Positions 8,659 to 39,154 of a stretch of DNA of 60,131 nt are shown piece after piece. The translations under genes and the position numbers were made by a program. The stretch comes from Candidatus Altiarchaeales archaeon. Lineage in GTDB: Archaea > Altiarchaeota > Altiarchaeia > IMC4 > QMZM01. Positions within the stretch are counted from its first letter, which is position 1; the number at the start of each line of letters is the position of its first letter. A model generated the notes under the pieces. The model saw only the letters and a list, made by a program, of their open reading frames with translations, searched no databases and was not told the origin of the DNA. The stretch spans positions 1 through 60,131 of the forward strand of contig JAHEXG010000003.1 of the NCBI GenBank assembly GCA_023252215.1. The letters are read 5' to 3'.

Positions 8659-8834
8659 TCGTCGGCCGACCCATCGAGCGAAGCGAGCATGGGTCCCAAT
8701 TTTTGTCCCTATGGGACATGTGCGTCGCACATTTTTCCAAGGCTTTTGCGCTTAGCGCATGCCTGCGGGCATCTTTTATTTTTAAGAAATGTCGGAAGGC
8801 CCGGCATGCCAGCAAGCTTGCTGGCAAAAAGGTT

Positions 8835-8981
8835 TAGCGGGGAGTAGATTTGAACTACTGACCTTCGGGTAACTCAGAAGTGTTTGTCTCATGAGTATTG
8901 CCTCTTATGAGCTTCGCCCGCGCCGAGCGATTTTACTCCTCATGCGCGTCCGACGAGCACTCCTGGCTGCTCAACCCCGCT
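8835..8981 (-). tRNA. Initiator-like tRNA-Met (CAU) with an interrupted anticodon arm (two putative non-canonical introns)
   Basis: A1:U72 acceptor AGCGGGG/CCCCGCT, D-arm GAGC-AGCCAGGAGT-GCTC, T-arm AGTAG-TTCAAAT-CTACT. Joining ..GTCGG + GCTCATAA + CCCGAAGGTC.. gives the anticodon arm TCGGG-CTCATAA-CCCGA with three G-C pairs. Confidence 0.55.
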
Positions 8982-9697
8982 GTATGTAAATCAATATTCC
9001 GTAGCACTTCTTGTCGGTGTTGAATATTGGTATTTGTCATATAATAACCAAGGTTTTTCCATATTTTGTACTTTGTTTCGTGTCTTGGGTTGTGGAATTT
9101 TATTTCATTTACCCATTTTTCAAGGATTTTTTTGCCGTTCATTTGTATCCTTATGCAGCCGTTTTGCTGGGCTGAAGTGATCGGCCGATATTCGAGGTTT
9201 GACAGGATTTCAAGTGTTTGTTTTCTCATCGGTGATGGGAGCATTTTTAGTTCTAGGCGGGGGTAAGCATGTTCTTTTTTGTTTTGCCTGTCAAAAATAA
9301 CGCATCCGTCGGTGTCAAACAGTCCTCTAAGGAAGTGTTTCTCCAAGCCTTCCTGGAAAATGAATGAGGGTATGATCGCCCGATCCCTCTTTGGCGAAGC
9401 AGCCATCCCCAGGTCCATTAAATATTCGTAAAACGGTTTTCCGAAATACATTAGTTCAAGGGTTCTTTCGCCGCGCTTAAATCGCAGGAGTGGTTCTTTG
9501 TCGAATAACCGGGTCATTAGCGGTCGTAAACAATTGGTGAAATATTCAAGGTTCTCTGACGCATCGCCGCTTATTTTCACCCGGTACTGTGTCTTGATCT
9601 TGTCCCCTGCTTTGCAATGATAACAACCAATTGATCCGTCGCCTAGTAAGGCACCTACGAATTCAGCGAGTTGAGCGTCTTGCTGGGGTTTTCTCAT
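8933..9697 (-). CDS. LAGLIDADG homing endonuclease (double-motif); the last 16 codons and the stop lie inside the tRNA gene
   Basis: Motifs FVGALLGDGSIG and FLRGLFDTDGCV. The ORF ends ...TAGLSSQECSSDAHEE*, encoded by tRNA positions 1-49. Confidence 0.75.
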   Translation of the reverse strand: MRKPQQDAQLAEFVGALLGDGSIGCYHCKAGDKIKTQYRVKISGDASENLEYFTNCLRPLMTRLFDKEPLLRFKRGERTLELMYFGKPFYEYLMDLGMAASPKRDRAIIPSFIFQEGLEKHFLRGLFDTDGCVIFDRQNKKEHAYPRLELKMLPSPMRKQTLEILSNLEYRPITSAQQNGCIRIQMNGKKILEKWVNEIKFHNPRHETKYKIWKNLGYYMTNTNIQHRQEVLRNIDLHTAGLSSQECSSDAHEE

Positions 9698-10877: not shown

Positions 10878-11147
10878 GCGATGATAACGTCCAGGATTTT
10901 ACGAATGTGGCCTTCGGCCATTTGGACTGAGCGGCCGAAGAGAGCGGGCCTTAAAAAGCCGGTTATGCAGCCCGCAAGGGTCGAGGAGCCGAACGAGGCG
11001 ACGAGAAGTTCAAAAACGCGGCCGTCGTTCGTTCGTGTTGTTGCCTCAGTTCCGTCATTAATTAAGGGGGTGGAGGCGTCCGCAACCGGTTTATTTTTCT
11101 GTTGCTCTGTTAAGGAATATAAAGCGCTAAGACGCTATACTACCATA

Positions 11148-12488
11148 ATGGCTGATATTTCCGAGTCCGAGACCTTGGAGCTAAAGAAGTCTACGTCTGA
11201 ACTCCGGGAGGGTGTAATCTCCGTAGCGTCTATGCTAAACAAGCATGGGAAAGGCATCCTATACTTTGGCATAAGGAATGACGGTAAAGCTCTTGGTCAG
11301 GAAATCGGGGAGAGAACTTTAAGGGACGTATCACAGGCAATTTCAGAAAATATTGAGCCGAAGGTCTATCCAAAGATCAGCAAGGAAGATATAGGCGGTA
11401 AGATCTGCATCAAGGTCGAATTCTCCGGAAACAACAAGCCGTATTATGCTTATGGCAGAGCTTACGTGCGTGTAGCCGATGAGGATCGTCAGTTGTCTGC
11501 TAAGGAGATCGAAGAAACAATCCTTCGCAAGAACAAAGATAAGCTACGCTGGGACACTGAAGTATGTGAGAAGGCGACGGTGTCTGACATAAGTCCAAAG
11601 AAGCTTAAATCATATGTCCGGAAAGCACATCTGAGATATGATTCGATTGAAAATGCCTTACAAAAGCTTGGCCTGCGATCCGATGGAAAGATTTTAAACG
11701 CCGCAGTACTGTTATTTGGTCGAAAGCCCGAGACGTTTTTTCCAAATGCCCGCCTAAGGTGTGCAATATTTGCGACGACCGATACTCATCTTCCTCTTGA
11801 CATGCAGGACTATAAAGGAGACCTGTTCACTTTAATAGAAACTGCTCAGCAATACATCCTCCAAAACATACACGTGGGCATGAGGCTTGAAGGCCTGTAC
11901 CGCGTGGATGTGCCGGAAATATCCCAAGAAGCGTTCAGAGAAGCCATAATAAACGCCTTCTGCCACCGAGACTACAGGGAATACGACTCGGTAAACATAG
12001 CGATATTCCGCGACCGCCTGGAAATAAGAAGTCCAGGACTGCTGTATGGCGGACTTACTATAGAGAAGATCAGGCGAGACATGGTATCAGAGAGACGGAA
12101 TGAACTGATCGCCGACCTATTGCATAGGATACATTTCATAGAAAAATGGGGCCGTGGAATAAGCCTTATATTATCAAACGAGCCGACAGCGAACTTCAAG
12201 GAATCGGGAACGCATTTTATAACGACCTTTAAGAGAAAGAGCGTTGAAGCGCAGATGGGCGAGCAAACCGGAGGGTTGGTAGATAGGTTGGTAGATGGGT
12301 TGGTAGAAAACCAAAAGAAGATACTGCGCTTAGTGAAGGTAGACCCATCCATATCAAAAAGAGAACTGGCGCAGAAAACGGGTATCAGCACCACAGCAGT
12401 TGATAAAAACATATCTACTCTCAAGAAGAAAGGCCTGCTGAAACGGGTAGGTCCGGCTAAAGGGGGGCGATGGGAATTGAGTGGATAA
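11148..12488 (+). CDS. Schlafen/AlbA_2 domain + HATPase_c_4-like + C-terminal wHTH protein (COG2865 type)
   Basis: ESETLELKKS...MLNKHGKGILYFGIRNDG at the N-terminus and NAFCHRDY...IEKWGRGI in the middle. HTH at the C-terminus (ISKRELAQKTGISTTAVDKNISTLKKKGLL). Start chosen at ATG 11148. The upstream 270 nt of the track ORF look non-coding. Confidence 0.7.
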   Translation: MADISESETLELKKSTSELREGVISVASMLNKHGKGILYFGIRNDGKALGQEIGERTLRDVSQAISENIEPKVYPKISKEDIGGKICIKVEFSGNNKPYYAYGRAYVRVADEDRQLSAKEIEETILRKNKDKLRWDTEVCEKATVSDISPKKLKSYVRKAHLRYDSIENALQKLGLRSDGKILNAAVLLFGRKPETFFPNARLRCAIFATTDTHLPLDMQDYKGDLFTLIETAQQYILQNIHVGMRLEGLYRVDVPEISQEAFREAIINAFCHRDYREYDSVNIAIFRDRLEIRSPGLLYGGLTIEKIRRDMVSERRNELIADLLHRIHFIEKWGRGISLILSNEPTANFKESGTHFITTFKRKSVEAQMGEQTGGLVDRLVDGLVENQKKILRLVKVDPSISKRELAQKTGISTTAVDKNISTLKKKGLLKRVGPAKGGRWELSG

Positions 12489-12546: not shown

Positions 12547-13857
12547 TTACCCTGACTTGGACTTTAGCATTTCCTCAAGAACACATGTCGTGGCTATTTC
12601 TACTGGCATGCCTAAGGCGCAAGCGGTATATGCAAATAATGTTAAGATTGTTAACGGCTTCTCTTCAATTTCTTTAATCTGTTTTTCAATTGACTGTAAA
12701 GGATAATATTGTTCGTTTTTCATACATATCGGTAGGCCGAATTTCTCAACAAAGTCGAGATAGTTTTTACTTTGGAAATATAGACTTGTTTTCCAACAGT
12801 TGATTAGCCTAAATTTTATTTCTATCATATCCTTATAACTAGCCTCAGACAGGAAATCCGAATATTTTTTGAAAATAGCTAAAATTGCACCGAAAATTAA
12901 TCGTCCACTCAAGAATTTAATATCAAAGGTAGATGTATCCCCCTCTCGAGAGTTGTATTTTTTATTTAATGCTTCCAACAAATCCTTATCATACTCCTCA
13001 GAGTTGCCAAAAATTGTAGTTAAGGGTAATAAAATTTTTAAGTTGCCGTAAATATCAATCTCCATAGACAAGCCATTTAAGTTAAAATCACCTTTGCTGA
13101 GCGTTCTTAATACAATACTGTTATGATATGTATTGATGGTATCAAAAAATATCGTACCCCCAAATGATATTTCTTTATCCTCAGTAGAGTCCTTTATTTT
13201 ATATGGTTCATTAAATTTTTTAAGAATATCCAGCATTTTCTCAGGAAAAAGTAGATCCTCGATAAAATGATGCTTAAATGGTTTTGGCGTAGCGTATATT
13301 TCAAGATACGATAGGCTATCCTCCCCTTTACAAAACGTTAATTCACACTTTCTAAATTTTTCTAAATCTTCATCATATTTCTGAGCTTTTTTGTAGAGTT
13401 CATCGATAATATGCCTATTCGTTTCTGGAATGGGATCGGACGCTGACCCTTGTCTCCTGTAAATTATTCCATCAGAGTTAATATACGGTGGGTTTTTCCC
13501 TTCAGGTATTACTACCATCAAGACATTCATTCCGTTACGAAGAGGTAATGTAAAAGTTTCAAACAACGGAAAAGGTTGCAAATTACCCCTTACGGAGTCT
13601 CTAATTATGTCTGGCGAATCTTTGATACCAATTATATTGGTCGCAAAATTAGTCTTTGTATCTGAATCGATCCCTATAAAATATATGCCCCCATGAGAAT
13701 TAGCAAAAGAAGCTATCGATTTTGATATTTTTCGCCCATTCAATTTTTCCTTTTTGTACTCGATATACCAACCCTCAGCAATGGATTTAAGTAATTCCAA
13801 ATCGCTTTCTTTAACCTCTTCAAAATCTTTTCCGAAGGGATTGAACAAGTTTCTCAC
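12547..13857 (-). CDS. AlbA_2 (Schlafen-like) N-terminal domain protein with a C-terminal region of about 300 aa and unknown function; low-GC gene
   Basis: ESDLELLKSIAEGWYIEYKKEK...SIASFANSHGGIYFIGID. Gene and flanks (about 12500-14160) are visibly AT-rich. Confidence 0.6.
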   Translation of the reverse strand: MRNLFNPFGKDFEEVKESDLELLKSIAEGWYIEYKKEKLNGRKISKSIASFANSHGGIYFIGIDSDTKTNFATNIIGIKDSPDIIRDSVRGNLQPFPLFETFTLPLRNGMNVLMVVIPEGKNPPYINSDGIIYRRQGSASDPIPETNRHIIDELYKKAQKYDEDLEKFRKCELTFCKGEDSLSYLEIYATPKPFKHHFIEDLLFPEKMLDILKKFNEPYKIKDSTEDKEISFGGTIFFDTINTYHNSIVLRTLSKGDFNLNGLSMEIDIYGNLKILLPLTTIFGNSEEYDKDLLEALNKKYNSREGDTSTFDIKFLSGRLIFGAILAIFKKYSDFLSEASYKDMIEIKFRLINCWKTSLYFQSKNYLDFVEKFGLPICMKNEQYYPLQSIEKQIKEIEEKPLTILTLFAYTACALGMPVEIATTCVLEEMLKSKSG

Positions 13858-36143: not shown

Positions 36144-36225
36144 GGGGCCTCGGTTTTCTTCTTTTTTTTTATTTTCTTTTATTATTTATTTAGTTCCAAA
36201 ACAGTAGTTAATAACCATTCGAGAT

Positions 36226-36298
36226 GCCTTGGTAGCTCAGCTGGTAGAGCGCTCGACTGTTAATCGAGTGGTCACAGGTTCAAGTCCTGTCCAAGGCG
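36226..36298 (+). tRNA. tRNA-Asn (GTT)
   Basis: GCCTTGG-TA-GCTC..GAGC-G-CTCGA-CTGTTAA-TCGAG-TGGTC-ACAGG-TTCAAGT-CCTGT-CCAAGGC-G. Confidence 0.9.
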
Positions 36299-36319
36299 TA
36301 TCAAGAAAAAAGGCCAAAC

Positions 36320-36394
36320 GGGCCCGTAGCTCAGACTGGTTAGAGCGCTCGACTCATAATCGAGTGGCCGTGGGTTCAAATCCCTCCGGGCCCA
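36320..36394 (+). tRNA. tRNA with anticodon CAT (elongator Met or Ile2)
   Basis: GGGCCCG/CGGGCCC acceptor, anticodon arm CTCGA-CTCATAA-TCGAG, T-loop TTCAAAT (one T-stem mismatch). Confidence 0.85.
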
Positions 36395-36397
36395 ACC

Positions 36398-36415
36398 TCC
36401 CTTCACAGGGACGTT
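36398..36415 (+). repeat. Conserved tRNA-trailer hairpin TCCCTTCACAGGGACGTT (copy 2)
   Basis: Identical to 857-874. Starts 4 nt after the tRNA end. Confidence 0.7.
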
Positions 36416-36512
36416 GATGGAAAATCCTAAAGGACGTCCCAGTGGGACAAACAGGAGGCAGGGTCTTCGACCCCCCCATAACGCACATTTTCAAAGATAA
36501 GAGGTCCATAAA

Positions 36513-36746
36513 ATGATTATTGAAGTAGGCAGGGTCTGCAGGAAGACCACAGGAAAAGACGCCGGCAAATACTGCGTGATCGTGGAAAAAATAGACGACA
36601 ACTATGTAATGACGGAGGGCATTGCCCAGAAGAGGAAAAAGACCAGCATACTACATCTCGAACCTCTGCCCAAAGTCCTGGAAATAAAGAAAGGCGCATC
36701 CACGGACGAAGTAAAAAAGAAACTGGAAGAAGAGAACCTCGCCTAG
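36513..36746 (+). CDS. rpl14e: Ribosomal protein L14e (KOW)
   Basis: MIIEVGRVCRKTTGKDAGKYCVIVEKIDDNYV... Confidence 0.8.
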   Translation: MIIEVGRVCRKTTGKDAGKYCVIVEKIDDNYVMTEGIAQKRKKTSILHLEPLPKVLEIKKGASTDEVKKKLEEENLA

Positions 36747-36753
36747 GTATGAT

Positions 36754-37752
36754 ATGAAACCAGCAGGCCTAACAGACGTCCTGATAAAGGAAGAGGCCGA
36801 AACAGACCCCGGATACGGCTGCCCCCCGGAAAACCGGGACATAAAAACACATCTGAACGACGGCATAGTCAACATCGACAAACCAGCAGGCCCCAATTCT
36901 CACCAAGTAACAACCTGGGTAAAAGAAATACTCGAACTGCCCAAGACCGGACACTCAGGAACACTAGACCCAAAAGTAACCGGTGTCCTACCGGTAGCGC
37001 TTGGAAACGCAACCAAAATAGTCAAAGTACTACTCCTATCAGACAAAGAATACGTCTGCCTAATGTCCCTACACGACACCGCGCCAAAAGACCGGCTGGA
37101 AAAAATATTCCACGAACTACAGGGCCCGATATTCCAGACACCCCCCATCATGTCCGCGGTAAAAAGAGAACTACGCATAAGAAACATATACGAATTAAGA
37201 CTGCTAGAACGAAACGGAAAAGAAATCCTCTACAAAGTCAGATGCGAAGCAGGAACCTACATAAGAAAACTCTGCCACGACATGGGAATAATCCTTGGAA
37301 CAGGCGCACACATGCACGAACTACGCAGGACAAAAGCAGGCTCATTCGACGAAACAAGCCTGGTAATACTACAGGACCTGAAAGACGCCTACGTAGCCTA
37401 CAAAGAAACAGGCGACGAAACAAGGCTGCGCAAACTAGTCCTCCCGGTCGAAGCAGGCGTCAAAAACATAAGAAAAATATGGATAAAAGACTCCGCCATA
37501 GACGCAATATGCCACGGAGCAGACCTCAACGCGCCAGGGATAAGCCTGCTGGAAAAAAACATAAACAAAAACGACCCAGTCGCCCTAATGTCCCTGAAAA
37601 ACGAACTAGTAGCACTCGCCAAAGCAAACTACGCATCAGAAGACCTGCAAAAAATGCAAAAAGGCCCCGCAGCAACCCTCGTACGCGTAATAATGGAAGC
37701 AAACACCTACCCAAAACAATGGCATAAAAACAAGGCAGAAAAAACAGCATAA
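36754..37752 (+). CDS. cbf5: tRNA/rRNA pseudouridine synthase Cbf5 (TruB + PUA)
   Basis: GHSGTLDPKVTGVLPVALG catalytic motif. Uninterrupted (no mRNA intron). Confidence 0.9.
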   Translation: MKPAGLTDVLIKEEAETDPGYGCPPENRDIKTHLNDGIVNIDKPAGPNSHQVTTWVKEILELPKTGHSGTLDPKVTGVLPVALGNATKIVKVLLLSDKEYVCLMSLHDTAPKDRLEKIFHELQGPIFQTPPIMSAVKRELRIRNIYELRLLERNGKEILYKVRCEAGTYIRKLCHDMGIILGTGAHMHELRRTKAGSFDETSLVILQDLKDAYVAYKETGDETRLRKLVLPVEAGVKNIRKIWIKDSAIDAICHGADLNAPGISLLEKNINKNDPVALMSLKNELVALAKANYASEDLQKMQKGPAATLVRVIMEANTYPKQWHKNKAEKTA

Positions 37753-37793
37753 TAAAACCACATAATCCCTAATCCATAACCTCATAATAGACG

Positions 37794-37949
37794 ATGAACA
37801 ACCTGCCAAGCATACAAAGCTGCCCAAAATGCAAAGGAGGACTAGAAGAACAAGAAAACAGCCTAATATGCCGCAGATGCAGAACACGCTACTCCCTAAA
37901 CCACGGAATACCCATAATGATAGTCGACTCAGCTGAAAAAGCAAGCTAA
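37794..37949 (+). CDS. Trm112/UPF0434-like Zn-ribbon protein (51 aa)
   Basis: Manual translation MNNLPSIQSCPKCKGGLEEQENSLICRRCRTRYSLNHGIPIMIVDSAEKAS*. Confidence 0.6.
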   Translation: MNNLPSIQSCPKCKGGLEEQENSLICRRCRTRYSLNHGIPIMIVDSAEKAS

Positions 37950-37979
37950 AAAAAAGTCGAACACAAATCATCCACACAT

Positions 37980-38067
37980 GCTGAGGTGGCAGAGTTTGGT
38001 CTAACGCGCGGGCCTGCTAAGTCCGTTCCTCGAAAGGGGAGCTTGGGTTCAAATCCCAACCTCAGCG
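37980..38067 (+). tRNA. tRNA-Ser (GCT), long variable arm
   Basis: GCTGAGG/CCTCAGC acceptor, anticodon arm CGGGC-CTGCTAA-GTCCG, extra arm, T-arm TTGGG-TTCAAAT-CCCAA. Confidence 0.85.
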
Positions 38068-38250
38068 CACCTTTTTTGCCTTCGAGAAGGCATGCCCTGT
38101 TGGGCATTTCTTAAGAAGAAAGATGCCTGAAGGCATGTCCCTGAATGGACAAAGAAGGGTGAGGCCTTCAGGCCCCACAGTGACGTGATATTTTTCGGCG
38201 CGATACCAATAATCCATATCCCAAAAAAAAATATTTTTGGAGGAACAAAA

Positions 38251-38457
38251 ATGGCTGGTCCGGAAAAGAGAAAACATCCCATATCGGAGATGGCAACAGG
38301 GAAAATACACCCCATACAGGCGATGAATAAATCCATAAATGAAAGAGAAAACAGAGGATCCGCAAGAGAAGATTTCAGCATGAACAAAGACGAGCGCGCA
38401 GGAATGAAACGCGTCATAGAAAGCGCCGCAAAATTCCAACCATACAAGAAAAAATAA
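38251..38457 (+). CDS. Hypothetical small basic protein (68 aa)
   Basis: ORF between tRNA-Ser and tRNA-Ala with GGAGG upstream. No recognisable motif. Confidence 0.25.
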   Translation: MAGPEKRKHPISEMATGKIHPIQAMNKSINERENRGSAREDFSMNKDERAGMKRVIESAAKFQPYKKK

Positions 38458-38471
38458 GGGAATAGAAAAAA

Positions 38472-38545
38472 GGGCTCGTAGATCAGTTCGGTAGATCGCC
38501 CGCTTGGCGTGCGGGAGGCCTCGGGTTCGAATCCCGACGAGTCCA
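38472..38545 (+). tRNA. tRNA-Ala (GGC)
   Basis: G3:U70 pair present. Anticodon arm CCCGC-TTGGCGT-GCGGG, T-arm TCGGG-TTCGAAT-CCCGA. Confidence 0.9.
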
Positions 38546-38646
38546 ATCCCTATCCCTCCCGCTTATTATTTTAACCTCAAACCCCTATCATAGACCATTT
38601 CATTCAACGGAACCGTGGGGTCGAAAGATCCCACGCTGATTCAACC

Positions 38647-38668
38647 GGGACCGTGGGGTAGCTTGTCC
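38647..38668 (+). pseudogene. Isolated copy of the tRNA-Pro 5' end (19 nt identical, 21/22)
   Basis: GGGACCGTGGGGTAGCTTGtCC versus the genuine 38752-38773. Followed by a trailer-like hairpin instead of the rest of a tRNA. Confidence 0.65.
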
Positions 38669-38751
38669 AGAACTCTCCCAAAGGGATGGTTTCATCCCCA
38701 AAAGAAAATTAAATTATAGAAACAATAAAAAATTTAATAAAATTCATTAAT

Positions 38752-38825
38752 GGGACCGTGGGGTAGCTTGGCCATCCTTCTAGCTTGGGGTGCTAGAAAC
38801 CTGTGTTCAAATCACAGCGGTCCCA
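38752..38825 (+). tRNA. tRNA-Pro (GGG)
   Basis: GGGACCG/CGGTCCC acceptor, anticodon arm CTAGC-TTGGGGT-GCTAG, T-arm CTGTG-TTCAAAT-CACAG. Confidence 0.85.
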
Positions 38826-38913
38826 TAGGAATCCCCCTCAAGGGATTATTCCATTCCCAAAAGAAAAGACAATGGGGTCTAAAGACCCCCCGTGGGGTGG
38901 GTCAGGATTAACC

Positions 38914-38952
38914 TAAAACTGGGGAGGGGCAAAGCCCCTCCGCGGTTTGGAG
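38914..38952 (+). repeat. HP-1 imperfect hairpin element, copy 4 (upper stem fully compensated)
   Basis: TAAAACTGG-GGAGGGGC-AAA-GCCCCTCC-GCGGTTTGGAG. Confidence 0.8.
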
Positions 38953-38978
38953 CTGTGTTCAAATCACAGCGGTCCCAT
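38953..38978 (+). repeat. Exact 26-nt copy of the tRNA-Pro 3' end
   Basis: CTGTGTTCAAATCACAGCGGTCCCAT is identical to 38801-38826. Confidence 0.9.
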
Positions 38979-39080
38979 GAACTGCCCTAAAGGGCATGTT
39001 TCATCCCCCTTGTCCTTCTGGGGCATGACCTGCATTAAATTGACTGGATTTAATGCCAAAAGTCGAAATAATTAGCATTC

Positions 39081-39154
39081 GCCTCCGTGGCTCAGACTGG
39101 CAGAGCGGCTGACTTGTAATCAGTAGGTCGAGGGTTCAAATCCCTCCGGGGGCT
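39081..39154 (+). tRNA. tRNA-Thr (TGT)
   Basis: GCCTCCG/CGGGGGC acceptor, anticodon arm GCTGA-CTTGTAA-TCAGT, T-arm GAGGG-TTCAAAT-CCCTC. Confidence 0.9.

Follow-up and report, generated by a model that had tools for sequence, protein, structure and literature searches.

Introns at tRNA positions 30/31, 45/46 and 59/60, relaxed bulge-helix-bulge (BHB) motifs, genes with several introns, and the link between such genes and a broad-specificity splicing endonuclease, EndA, are established features of archaeal tRNAs (PMC4090602, PMC4033280, PMC5829648), with a stated maximum of three introns per archaeal tRNA gene (PMC4033280, PMC8450103). Here, we describe an initiator tRNA-Met (tRNAi) gene from a Candidatus Altiarchaeales archaeon, located at 8981..8835 of a 60,131-nt stretch of DNA (assembly GCA_023252215.1, contig JAHEXG010000003.1, positions 1–60,131; hereafter the window). 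The gene is interrupted in its anticodon arm by two short inserts, and its 5′ end is abutted by an open reading frame (ORF) that resembles the LAGLIDADG endonucleases. The locus is very probably the functional, and probably the sole, initiator tRNA-Met gene of this Altiarchaeota archaeon, producing a 147-nt precursor with two protein-spliced introns of the BHB type.

The window gene belongs to a known class, the multi-intron archaeal tRNAs, and extends that class to the Altiarchaeota. Like the multi-intron tRNAs of Thermoproteales, Thaumarchaeota and small-genome archaea, it has short introns with BHB or relaxed (HBh′) motifs, at the canonical position 37/38 and at a non-canonical position (PMC4090602, PMC4033280, PMC8450103). 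The non-canonical position, 30/31, is a published one (as is 59/60, used in relatives of the window genome), the closely spaced introns are probably removed in order, and gain and loss are rapid, again as in those tRNAs. It differs from them in its Altiarchaeota host, in being an initiator tRNA, and in its physical link to a LAGLIDADG gene.

The adjoining ORF resembles the archaeal rRNA-intron LAGLIDADG enzymes I-DmoI, I-Tsp061I and I-PorI in its monomeric double-motif fold, its catalytic residues and its association with a stable-RNA gene that bears BHB introns. Unlike those enzymes, it lies beside the gene, the introns (35–37 nt) being too short to hold it; the host gene encodes a tRNA and not an rRNA, and the activity of the protein is a predicted one. 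Phage collaborative homing, too, pairs a free-standing nuclease gene with a neighboring conserved gene that has ORF-less introns, as in mobE/nrdB of Aeh1 and F-CphI/psbA of cyanophage S-PM2 (PMC3984707, PMC2790892, PMC6083498), where, as here, the whole unit is present or absent between relatives. However, the phage systems involve self-splicing group I introns and other nuclease families, whereas the present locus has introns of the protein-spliced BHB type and lies on an archaeal chromosome. In bacteria, group I introns are found in the anticodon loops of tRNAs, and that of cyanobacterial tRNA-fMet likewise interrupts an initiator tRNA in its anticodon arm. Such introns are self-splicing ribozymes of more than ~200 nt, in contrast to the 35–37 nt inserts with BHB junctions described here, which have no room for a P3–P9 ribozyme core. 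The literature searched, which was not exhaustive, contained no mention of tRNA introns or EndA in Altiarchaeota and no link of LAGLIDADG genes to tRNAi; within it, both this linkage and the tRNAi genes with four or five inserts described below appear unreported.

Structure of the Interrupted tRNAi Gene

When the two inserts were excised from the sequence, ARAGORN identified a 75-nt tRNA-Met(CAT). The 147-nt precursor is divided into AGCGGGGUUGAGCAGCCAGGAGUGCUCGUCGG, 37 nt, GCUCAUAA, 35 nt and CCCGAAGGUCAGUAGUUCAAAUCUACUCCCCGCUA, corresponding to exons of 32, 7 and 36 nt (Table 1); around the anticodon arm it reads ...GTCGG, 37 nt, GCTCATAA, 35 nt, CCCGAAGGTC... Archaeal initiator tRNAs are distinguished by a CAU anticodon, an A1:U72 pair and three consecutive G:C pairs at 29–31:39–41. 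All of these are present in the spliced sequence, which has the acceptor strands AGCGGGG/CCCCGCT, an A11:U24 pair and discriminator A73, and in which the anticodon stem UCGGG/CCCGA supplies the three G:C pairs and closes the loop CUCAUAA.

Table 1. Positions in the window of the tRNAi gene, its predicted splicing motifs and the adjoining ORF.
Feature	Position	Strand	Description	Basis
Initiator tRNA-Met(CAT) gene	8835..8981	minus	147-nt precursor with two introns; spliced product a 75-nt tRNA-Met	
Exon 1	8950..8981	minus	tRNA positions 1–30: 5′ strand of the acceptor stem, D arm and G26, with the initial 4 nt of the anticodon stem	Exact 32-mer in 29 reference genomes
Intron 1	8913..8949	minus	37 nt; non-canonical position 30/31; relaxed HBh′	BHB scan and covariation
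Exon 2	8906..8912	minus	7 nt: G31 and C32–A37 of anticodon loop; anticodon CAT at 8907–8909	
Intron 2	8871..8905	minus	35 nt; canonical position 37/38; strict hBHBh′	BHB scan
Exon 3	8835..8870	minus	A38 to A73: anticodon stem 3′ strand, variable loop AGGUC, T arm, acceptor 3′ strand, discriminator A	
Intron 1 BHB elements	8952–8955 with 8915–8918; 8944–8948 with 8919–8923; 8949–8951 and 8912–8914	minus	H; h′; bulges	
Intron 2 BHB elements	8908–8911 with 8873–8876; 8901–8904 with 8877–8880; 8905–8907 and 8870–8872	minus	H; h′; bulges	
LAGLIDADG ORF	8933..9697	minus	Free-standing double-motif endonuclease ORF, 254 aa as read; conserved protein 8982–9697	Motifs, alignment, AlphaFold2, Foldseek

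A first-pass annotation of this stretch had proposed an initiator-type tRNA-Met with a canonical A1:U72 acceptor stem, whose anticodon arm, TCGGG-CTCATAA-CCCGA with three G-C pairs, required the removal of a 37-nt and a 35-nt insert. The segmentation was found exactly so, on the minus strand, and the arm was reproduced in the spliced product called by ARAGORN. A plus-strand reading was rejected, the plus strand being merely the reverse complement of the tRNA (T arm GTAGTTCAAATCTAC).

The product was then compared to the orthologous locus of a related Altiarchaeales genome (L012), which has the same flanking genes on both sides at 75–91% nucleotide identity. The L012 genome carries an uninterrupted 75-nt gene (56.1 bits, E = 9e-12, on Rfam RF00005) that is identical to the predicted spliced product in 75/75 positions. 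This identity is the strongest single piece of evidence, and puts the two-insert solution far beyond chance. Exon 3 is 100% identical in L012, L008 and L124.

The unspliced gene was missed by ARAGORN and by the Rfam tRNA model, a sensitive local scan included. Because both are blind to the gene, genome annotation in Altiarchaeota and DPANN, like any check of their tRNA complement, will report this essential tRNA as missing unless BHB-aware tools are used; BHB-intron tRNAs elsewhere have been found with SPLITS and tRNAscan-SE 2.0. A further tRNA-Met(CAT) in the window, at 36320–36394, has G1:C72 and the stem CUCGA/UCGAG, and is elongator-type, since it has G1:C72 and no run of G:C pairs.

Splicing Motifs and Order of Removal

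The precursor was scanned for BHB motifs using every pair of 4-nt segments, requiring a 4-bp central helix (H) between two 3-nt bulges on opposite strands, with cleavage after the second bulge base, an outer helix (h) and an inner helix (h′). This unbiased scan returned exactly the two introns of Table 1, and gave the same solutions in relatives, although the first-pass annotation had been unable to draw either motif by eye. Other BHB-like pairs in the precursor were rejected, as they gave either non-tRNA products or a product with an AGU anticodon and a weaker motif (h′ = 0); these alternative excisions were dropped because the preferred solution is identical to the L012 gene.

Intron 1 (precursor positions 33–69) has the central helix CGUC/GGCG, bulges GG↓A and AA↓G (arrows, modeled cleavage), and a 5-bp inner helix, CGCGC/GCGCG. 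It lacks the outer helix, making it a relaxed HBh′ motif. Intron 2 (precursor positions 77–111) has the central helix CUCA/UGAG, bulges UA↓A and UU↓A, and a 4-bp inner helix, GAGG/CUUC; its outer helix is the anticodon stem itself, and one strand of H is formed by C32–A35, including the first two bases of the anticodon. Of the two non-canonical positions previously proposed for these introns, 30/31 was borne out, while 38/39 was not: a perfect BHB forms when intron 2 is assigned to the canonical position 37/38. (This register is one base upstream of the cut first proposed; the shift is possible since there is an A at both junctions, and it leaves the mature sequence unchanged.)

The unconstrained fold of the precursor retained the acceptor, D and T arms and the inner helix of intron 1, with a minimum free energy (MFE) of −55.0 kcal/mol (z = −3.2). 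Enforcing the intron 1 motif in the full precursor gave −53.6 kcal/mol, a cost of 1.4, compared to −48.6 kcal/mol for the intron 2 motif and −43.6 kcal/mol for both together. Once intron 1 is gone, the 5-bp anticodon stem serves as outer helix and intron 2 has the full canonical hBHBh′; its motif could then be enforced at −34.9 kcal/mol against an MFE of −36.9, a cost of 2.0. The MFE structure of the mature tRNA is the cloverleaf, at −30.3 kcal/mol. The central helix of intron 1 would borrow C25–C28 of the tRNA body, thereby competing with the top of the anticodon stem. Intron 1 is therefore likely to be removed before intron 2, since its motif uses C25–C28 and the bulged G29–G30, which the intron 2 motif needs in the anticodon stem. 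EndA would cut inside the 3-nt bulges of both motifs, and an RNA ligase would join the three exons into the 75-nt cloverleaf. Ordered removal of closely spaced introns is known in other archaea (PMC8450103).

An 8-nt palindrome, CTCATGAG, is found inside intron 2 (8884–8891), where it pairs with CUCAU of the anticodon loop in the MFE fold, in competition with the BHB helix. The palindrome is conserved at the same position in L002, L007, L008, L010, L017, L021, L121, L122, L124 and L125.

Intron States in Related Genomes

The 32-nt exon 1 has a single exact match per genome in 29 species-level reference genomes, almost all of them with an Altiarchaeota label; with eight metagenome loci, these provided 37 related loci for comparison. 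Across this set the exons are unchanged, while the number of introns ranges from 0 to 3. The gene is uninterrupted in 11 loci, and has a single intron at 37/38 in 10 loci, where the introns represent at least four sequences unrelated to one another. The window shares its pair of introns, at 30/31 and 37/38, with L008, L010, L017, L021, L121, L122 and L124, and this pair is joined by a third intron at 59/60, in the T loop, in L002, L007, L024, L118 and L125. The intron 2 family that carries CTCATGAG always accompanies intron 1.

Intron 1 was available in 12 distinct versions, in which the bulges and the central helix are invariant. The five pairs of the inner helix are paired in 100% of the cells of this alignment, and three of the five have changed on both sides (C:G to U:A, G:C to A:U). 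None of 500 shuffles reached either the observed pairing or the observed covariation score, and pairing fell to 22–57% when the partner strand was slid by 1–3 columns. The central helix of intron 2 is fully paired in 9 of the 13 carriers of its family, through either UGAG or UGGG. As its introns number from 0 to 3 in close relatives and reach four or five in other archaea (see below), the tRNAi gene offers a compact system for the study of intron gain and loss. The two-intron gene would also imply that the EndA of Altiarchaeota tolerates relaxed motifs.

A LAGLIDADG Gene Family Linked to Interrupted tRNAi Genes

The reading frame of the adjoining ORF runs into exon 1 of the tRNA, and its stop codon (TAA) is inside intron 1. 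(RNase P processing of an ORF–tRNA co-transcript would strip the stop codon from the ORF.) By sequence alone the ORF has only a weak match to LAGLIDADG, but there is a gradual transition through its 35 relatives to proteins with curated LAGLIDADG domains, the distant ones carrying PF00961, PF03161 or PF14528. In an alignment of 23 members with 27–79% identity, the motifs LLGDG and FDTDG and residues D20, D130 and K103 are invariant. The AlphaFold2 model (pLDDT 95.8) matched I-DmoI, I-Tsp061I, PI-PfuI and I-OnuI in Foldseek with a probability of 1.00, I-DmoI and I-Tsp061I being among the top matches. Based on the motifs and the model, the ORF is a member of the LAGLIDADG homing endonuclease family, with a catalytic acidic residue at the end of both of its predicted LAGLIDADG helices and an αββαββα double fold.

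Members of the family were found near tRNAi in the window and in L010, L017, L122, L124, L026, L126–L131, L133, L135, L143, L148, L149 and L154. The tRNAi genes of these relatives were delineated by junction-guided BHB scans. In 13 of the 14 distinct family loci examined, the gene lies within ~100 nt of tRNAi, in all four relative orientations and in lineages that include Altiarchaeota, Pacearchaeota, Woesearchaeota and unassigned archaea, and 12 of these 13 tRNAi genes have an insert at 29/30 or 30/31. That adjacency is kept while orientation varies suggests a tie at the level of DNA, as for a homing endonuclease anchored to its target, and not co-transcription.

Outside the Altiarchaeota, every distant member looked up, with one exception, was within ~100 nt of a tRNAi gene that ARAGORN misses. 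In the Pacearchaeota (L128/L129), the tRNA lies ~65 nt downstream on the same strand and has one insert at 29/30 with a full BHB. The unassigned loci include a divergent arrangement with one insert at 29/30 (L133), a convergent, overlapping one with three inserts (L126), and one with three inserts in which the tRNA is upstream on the same strand (L131). L130:941-1136 (= L150, Woesearchaeota JACRKJ010000032.1), convergent and 19 nt apart, has four BHB-bounded inserts, at about 15/16, 29/30, the variable region and 59/60. (In L126 and L130, 2–4 extra bases remain at the junction of the third, variable-region insert even in the best BHB register.) The unassigned L127:2863-3079 (JGI Ga0311295_1304731), with the tRNA ~70 nt upstream on the same strand, has five, at 14/15, 30/31, 37/38, 45/46 and 59/60; its exons of 14, 18, 7, 8, 14 and 14 nt, none longer than 18 nt, yield a 75-nt tRNA-Met. 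The exception, L132, is the most distant member (27% identity) and lies 316 nt from a different intron-bearing tRNA. In L127, the ORF start assigned by the gene caller falls inside the tRNA. The tRNAi genes of L142 (210 nt) and L138 (233 nt) look similar to those of L127 and L130.

The converse search, by a junction-specific pattern from the tRNA side, identified a 29/30 insert in 19 genuine tRNAi genes of archaea. A LAGLIDADG gene lies 8–70 nt from six of them, all labelled as DPANN lineages or unclassified archaea, and nowhere else in those loci; one copy (L148) is split into two fragments. The LAGLIDADG profile had no match in 796 kb around at least 120 uninterrupted initiator tRNA genes; these are mostly bacterial (bacterial tRNA-fMet shares the motif), making this a control of specificity only. 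A 29/30 insert ending in ...GCGGAA↓GG was seen in tRNAi of L139, L156 and L160 (metagenome-assembled genomes labelled Nitrososphaerota, Bathyarchaeia and Brockarchaeota) and of 16 DPANN loci (L134–L159), and thus spans distant archaeal phyla. Pairing with the exon partly dictates this common 3′ end, and the insert may reflect either common descent or convergence.

Among the Altiarchaeota, the ORF abuts the 5′ end of tRNAi in the window, L124, L010, L017 and L122, and L008 has a ~70-aa remnant; all of these carry intron 1. The ORF is missing from eight further carriers of intron 1. It is thus found in 6 of 14 carriers, versus 1 of 20 non-carriers (Fisher p = 0.012, without phylogenetic correction); the one is L026, in which an uninterrupted tRNAi lies beside an ORF half with an intact FDTDG motif, and the 19 other non-carriers have none. 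In L012, the ORF and both introns are absent together.

Possible Roles of the LAGLIDADG Protein

We considered the possibility that the inserts are the footprint of a conflict with the adjacent endonuclease. Such a reading would add to the explanation given above and not replace it, since EndA would still splice the RNA. The LAGLIDADG gene and the interrupted tRNAi would then form one selfish unit: the nuclease would recognize the near-universal uninterrupted tRNAi, around positions 29–38, and the BHB inserts would break up this target, confer immunity, and be co-converted with the nuclease gene as in phage collaborative homing, a concept that has been described (PMC3984707, PMC2790892). The invariant catalytic Asp in both motifs, the adjacency seen from both the protein and the tRNA side, the distribution among Altiarchaeota, the joint absence in L012, and the decayed copies in L008 and L148, which are expected from the life cycle of a homing endonuclease, all point in this direction. 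Site-specific DNA cleavage and homing by the ORF product are suggested only indirectly, by the presence/absence polymorphism, the decayed copies and the fixed adjacency to one conserved gene in any orientation. Against it, L026 is one clear counter-example, many interrupted genes have no nuclease neighbor, the Altiarchaeota association is confounded by phylogeny, and a segment-wise comparison of identity showed no clear sign of recent cassette transfer. Furthermore, DPANN tRNAs are intron-rich in general, so that the interruption of tRNAi in these lineages may be unrelated (PMC5829648), and cutting by the nuclease at the intron insertion site is a hypothesis. On balance, we hold the selfish-unit reading only tentatively, and consider it possible but rather unlikely. 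If true, it would provide a DNA-level mechanism of mobility and selection for the protein-spliced tRNA introns of archaea, and would explain why tRNAi genes of DPANN and Altiarchaeota gather inserts, up to four or five in number. The linkage to an endonuclease with intact catalytic residues makes it a hypothesis that can be tested at the bench.

Alternatively, the protein might be a domesticated RNA maturase, chaperone or DNA-binding regulator that aids the expression or splicing of tRNAi. Its tight linkage to tRNAi genes would fit such a role, as would the Foldseek matches to the LAGLIDADG maturases bI3 and I-AniI and the label of "WhiA" regulators that one source gives to its relatives. However, the catalytic aspartates are often lost in pure maturases and in WhiA, whereas both are invariant here. 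BHB splicing requires no maturase (PMC4090602). Close relatives differ in whether they have the gene, and some copies are decayed, which is more in keeping with a selfish element than with a required factor. We regard this role as improbable.

Functional Gene or Pseudogene

Several observations weigh against a functional, spliced tRNAi gene. The HBh′ motif of intron 1 has no outer helix, and would have to be accepted in this form by the host EndA. (Types able to cut relaxed motifs are (αβ)2, ε2, or α4 with a specificity loop.) With M. jannaschii EndA, validated against PDB 1A79, as the probe, neither tblastn nor a 106-sequence profile detected an EndA gene in the window or at any of 29 loci of Altiarchaeota. 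A locus search with the profile returned only Nanoarchaeota and Woesearchaeota, and neither the best 120 of 5,489 protein matches nor three look-ups of genomic context included an identifiable Altiarchaeota EndA. In addition, metatranscriptome contigs from RNA runs of the same studies had no match to the exons of this organism; the sole insert-free RNA contig, an abundant one, differs at three T-arm positions, and uninterrupted genes of other archaea are present in the DNA of the same sample. There is no well-placed TATA box upstream of the tRNA gene in the window; in L012, the TATA box sits in the spacer which the LAGLIDADG ORF replaces in the window. Finally, the search for a second gene covered the window, the source contigs with the 5′ exon and the 29 reference genomes, which leaves some chance of a second, divergent tRNAi elsewhere in the genome.

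Alternatively, the locus might be a decaying pseudogene broken by two insertions, with the initiator tRNA supplied by a different gene; that the locus is missed by standard finders, that no transcript was matched, and that the ORF overlaps the 5′ part of the tRNA would agree with this. Yet the 75 exon bases are all identical to those of the intact orthologue, both inserts are placed in BHB motifs, the intron 1 helix has undergone compensatory evolution over its 12 versions, and the two-intron architecture persists between species whose flanking genes are only 70–83% identical. The first-pass annotation had named as signs of a pseudogene or an error a second intact tRNAi gene together with no mature product from this locus, and a failure of BHB-like structures to form at the junctions. 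BHB motifs are present, as described above; ARAGORN and Rfam scans of the 60-kb window found no further initiator-type tRNA, and neither the 29 reference genomes nor those contigs of the source metagenome that contain the 5′ exon showed a second copy. In run X1 of this metagenome, a 6,237-nt intron-bearing contig (depth 6.9) was the only one to cover the first ~23 nt of the gene. Because the exons are perfectly conserved while flanking genes differ by 17–30%, no other initiator tRNA is found in the window, and a lone intron-bearing contig covers the 5′ part, a pseudogene is very unlikely. A group I self-splicing intron was rejected, given inserts of 37 and 35 nt and no match to an Rfam intron.

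Two tandem tRNA-intron-endonuclease paralogues of 165 and 172 aa were seen in an environmental archaeon (L036 and L037, 2001–3013), and would fit an α/β heteromeric EndA.

Other Features of the Window

A tRNA-Trp(CCA) gene at 693–852 on the plus strand (36.6 bits with Rfam, missed by ARAGORN) has a single insert of ~84–91 nt in its anticodon loop. The tRNA-Trp intron of Euryarchaeota encodes a box C/D methylation guide, and the insert holds ATGATGA and CTGA, resembling boxes C and D. The BHB motif of this insert departs from the strict form. A cluster at 36225–39154 on the plus strand comprises six tRNA genes that are uninterrupted (Asn, elongator-type Met, Ser, Ala, Pro and Thr), and thus intron-bearing and intron-free tRNA genes coexist in the genome.

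Just downstream of the tRNAi gene, at 8790–8830 and 8700–8790, there are GC-rich palindromes, such as GCCAGCAAGCTTGCTGGC, GCATGCGCTAAGCGCA and the hairpin GTGCGACGCAC, and the downstream spacer exceeds that of L012 by ~130 nt. Schlafen/AlbA_2 domains occur in two convergent genes (10881–12488, plus strand; 12547–13857, minus strand) that adjoin MGMT-like and PsbP-like genes; in one of the two they are accompanied by a winged-helix domain and a RecG-C-terminal-like HATPase_c_4 domain.

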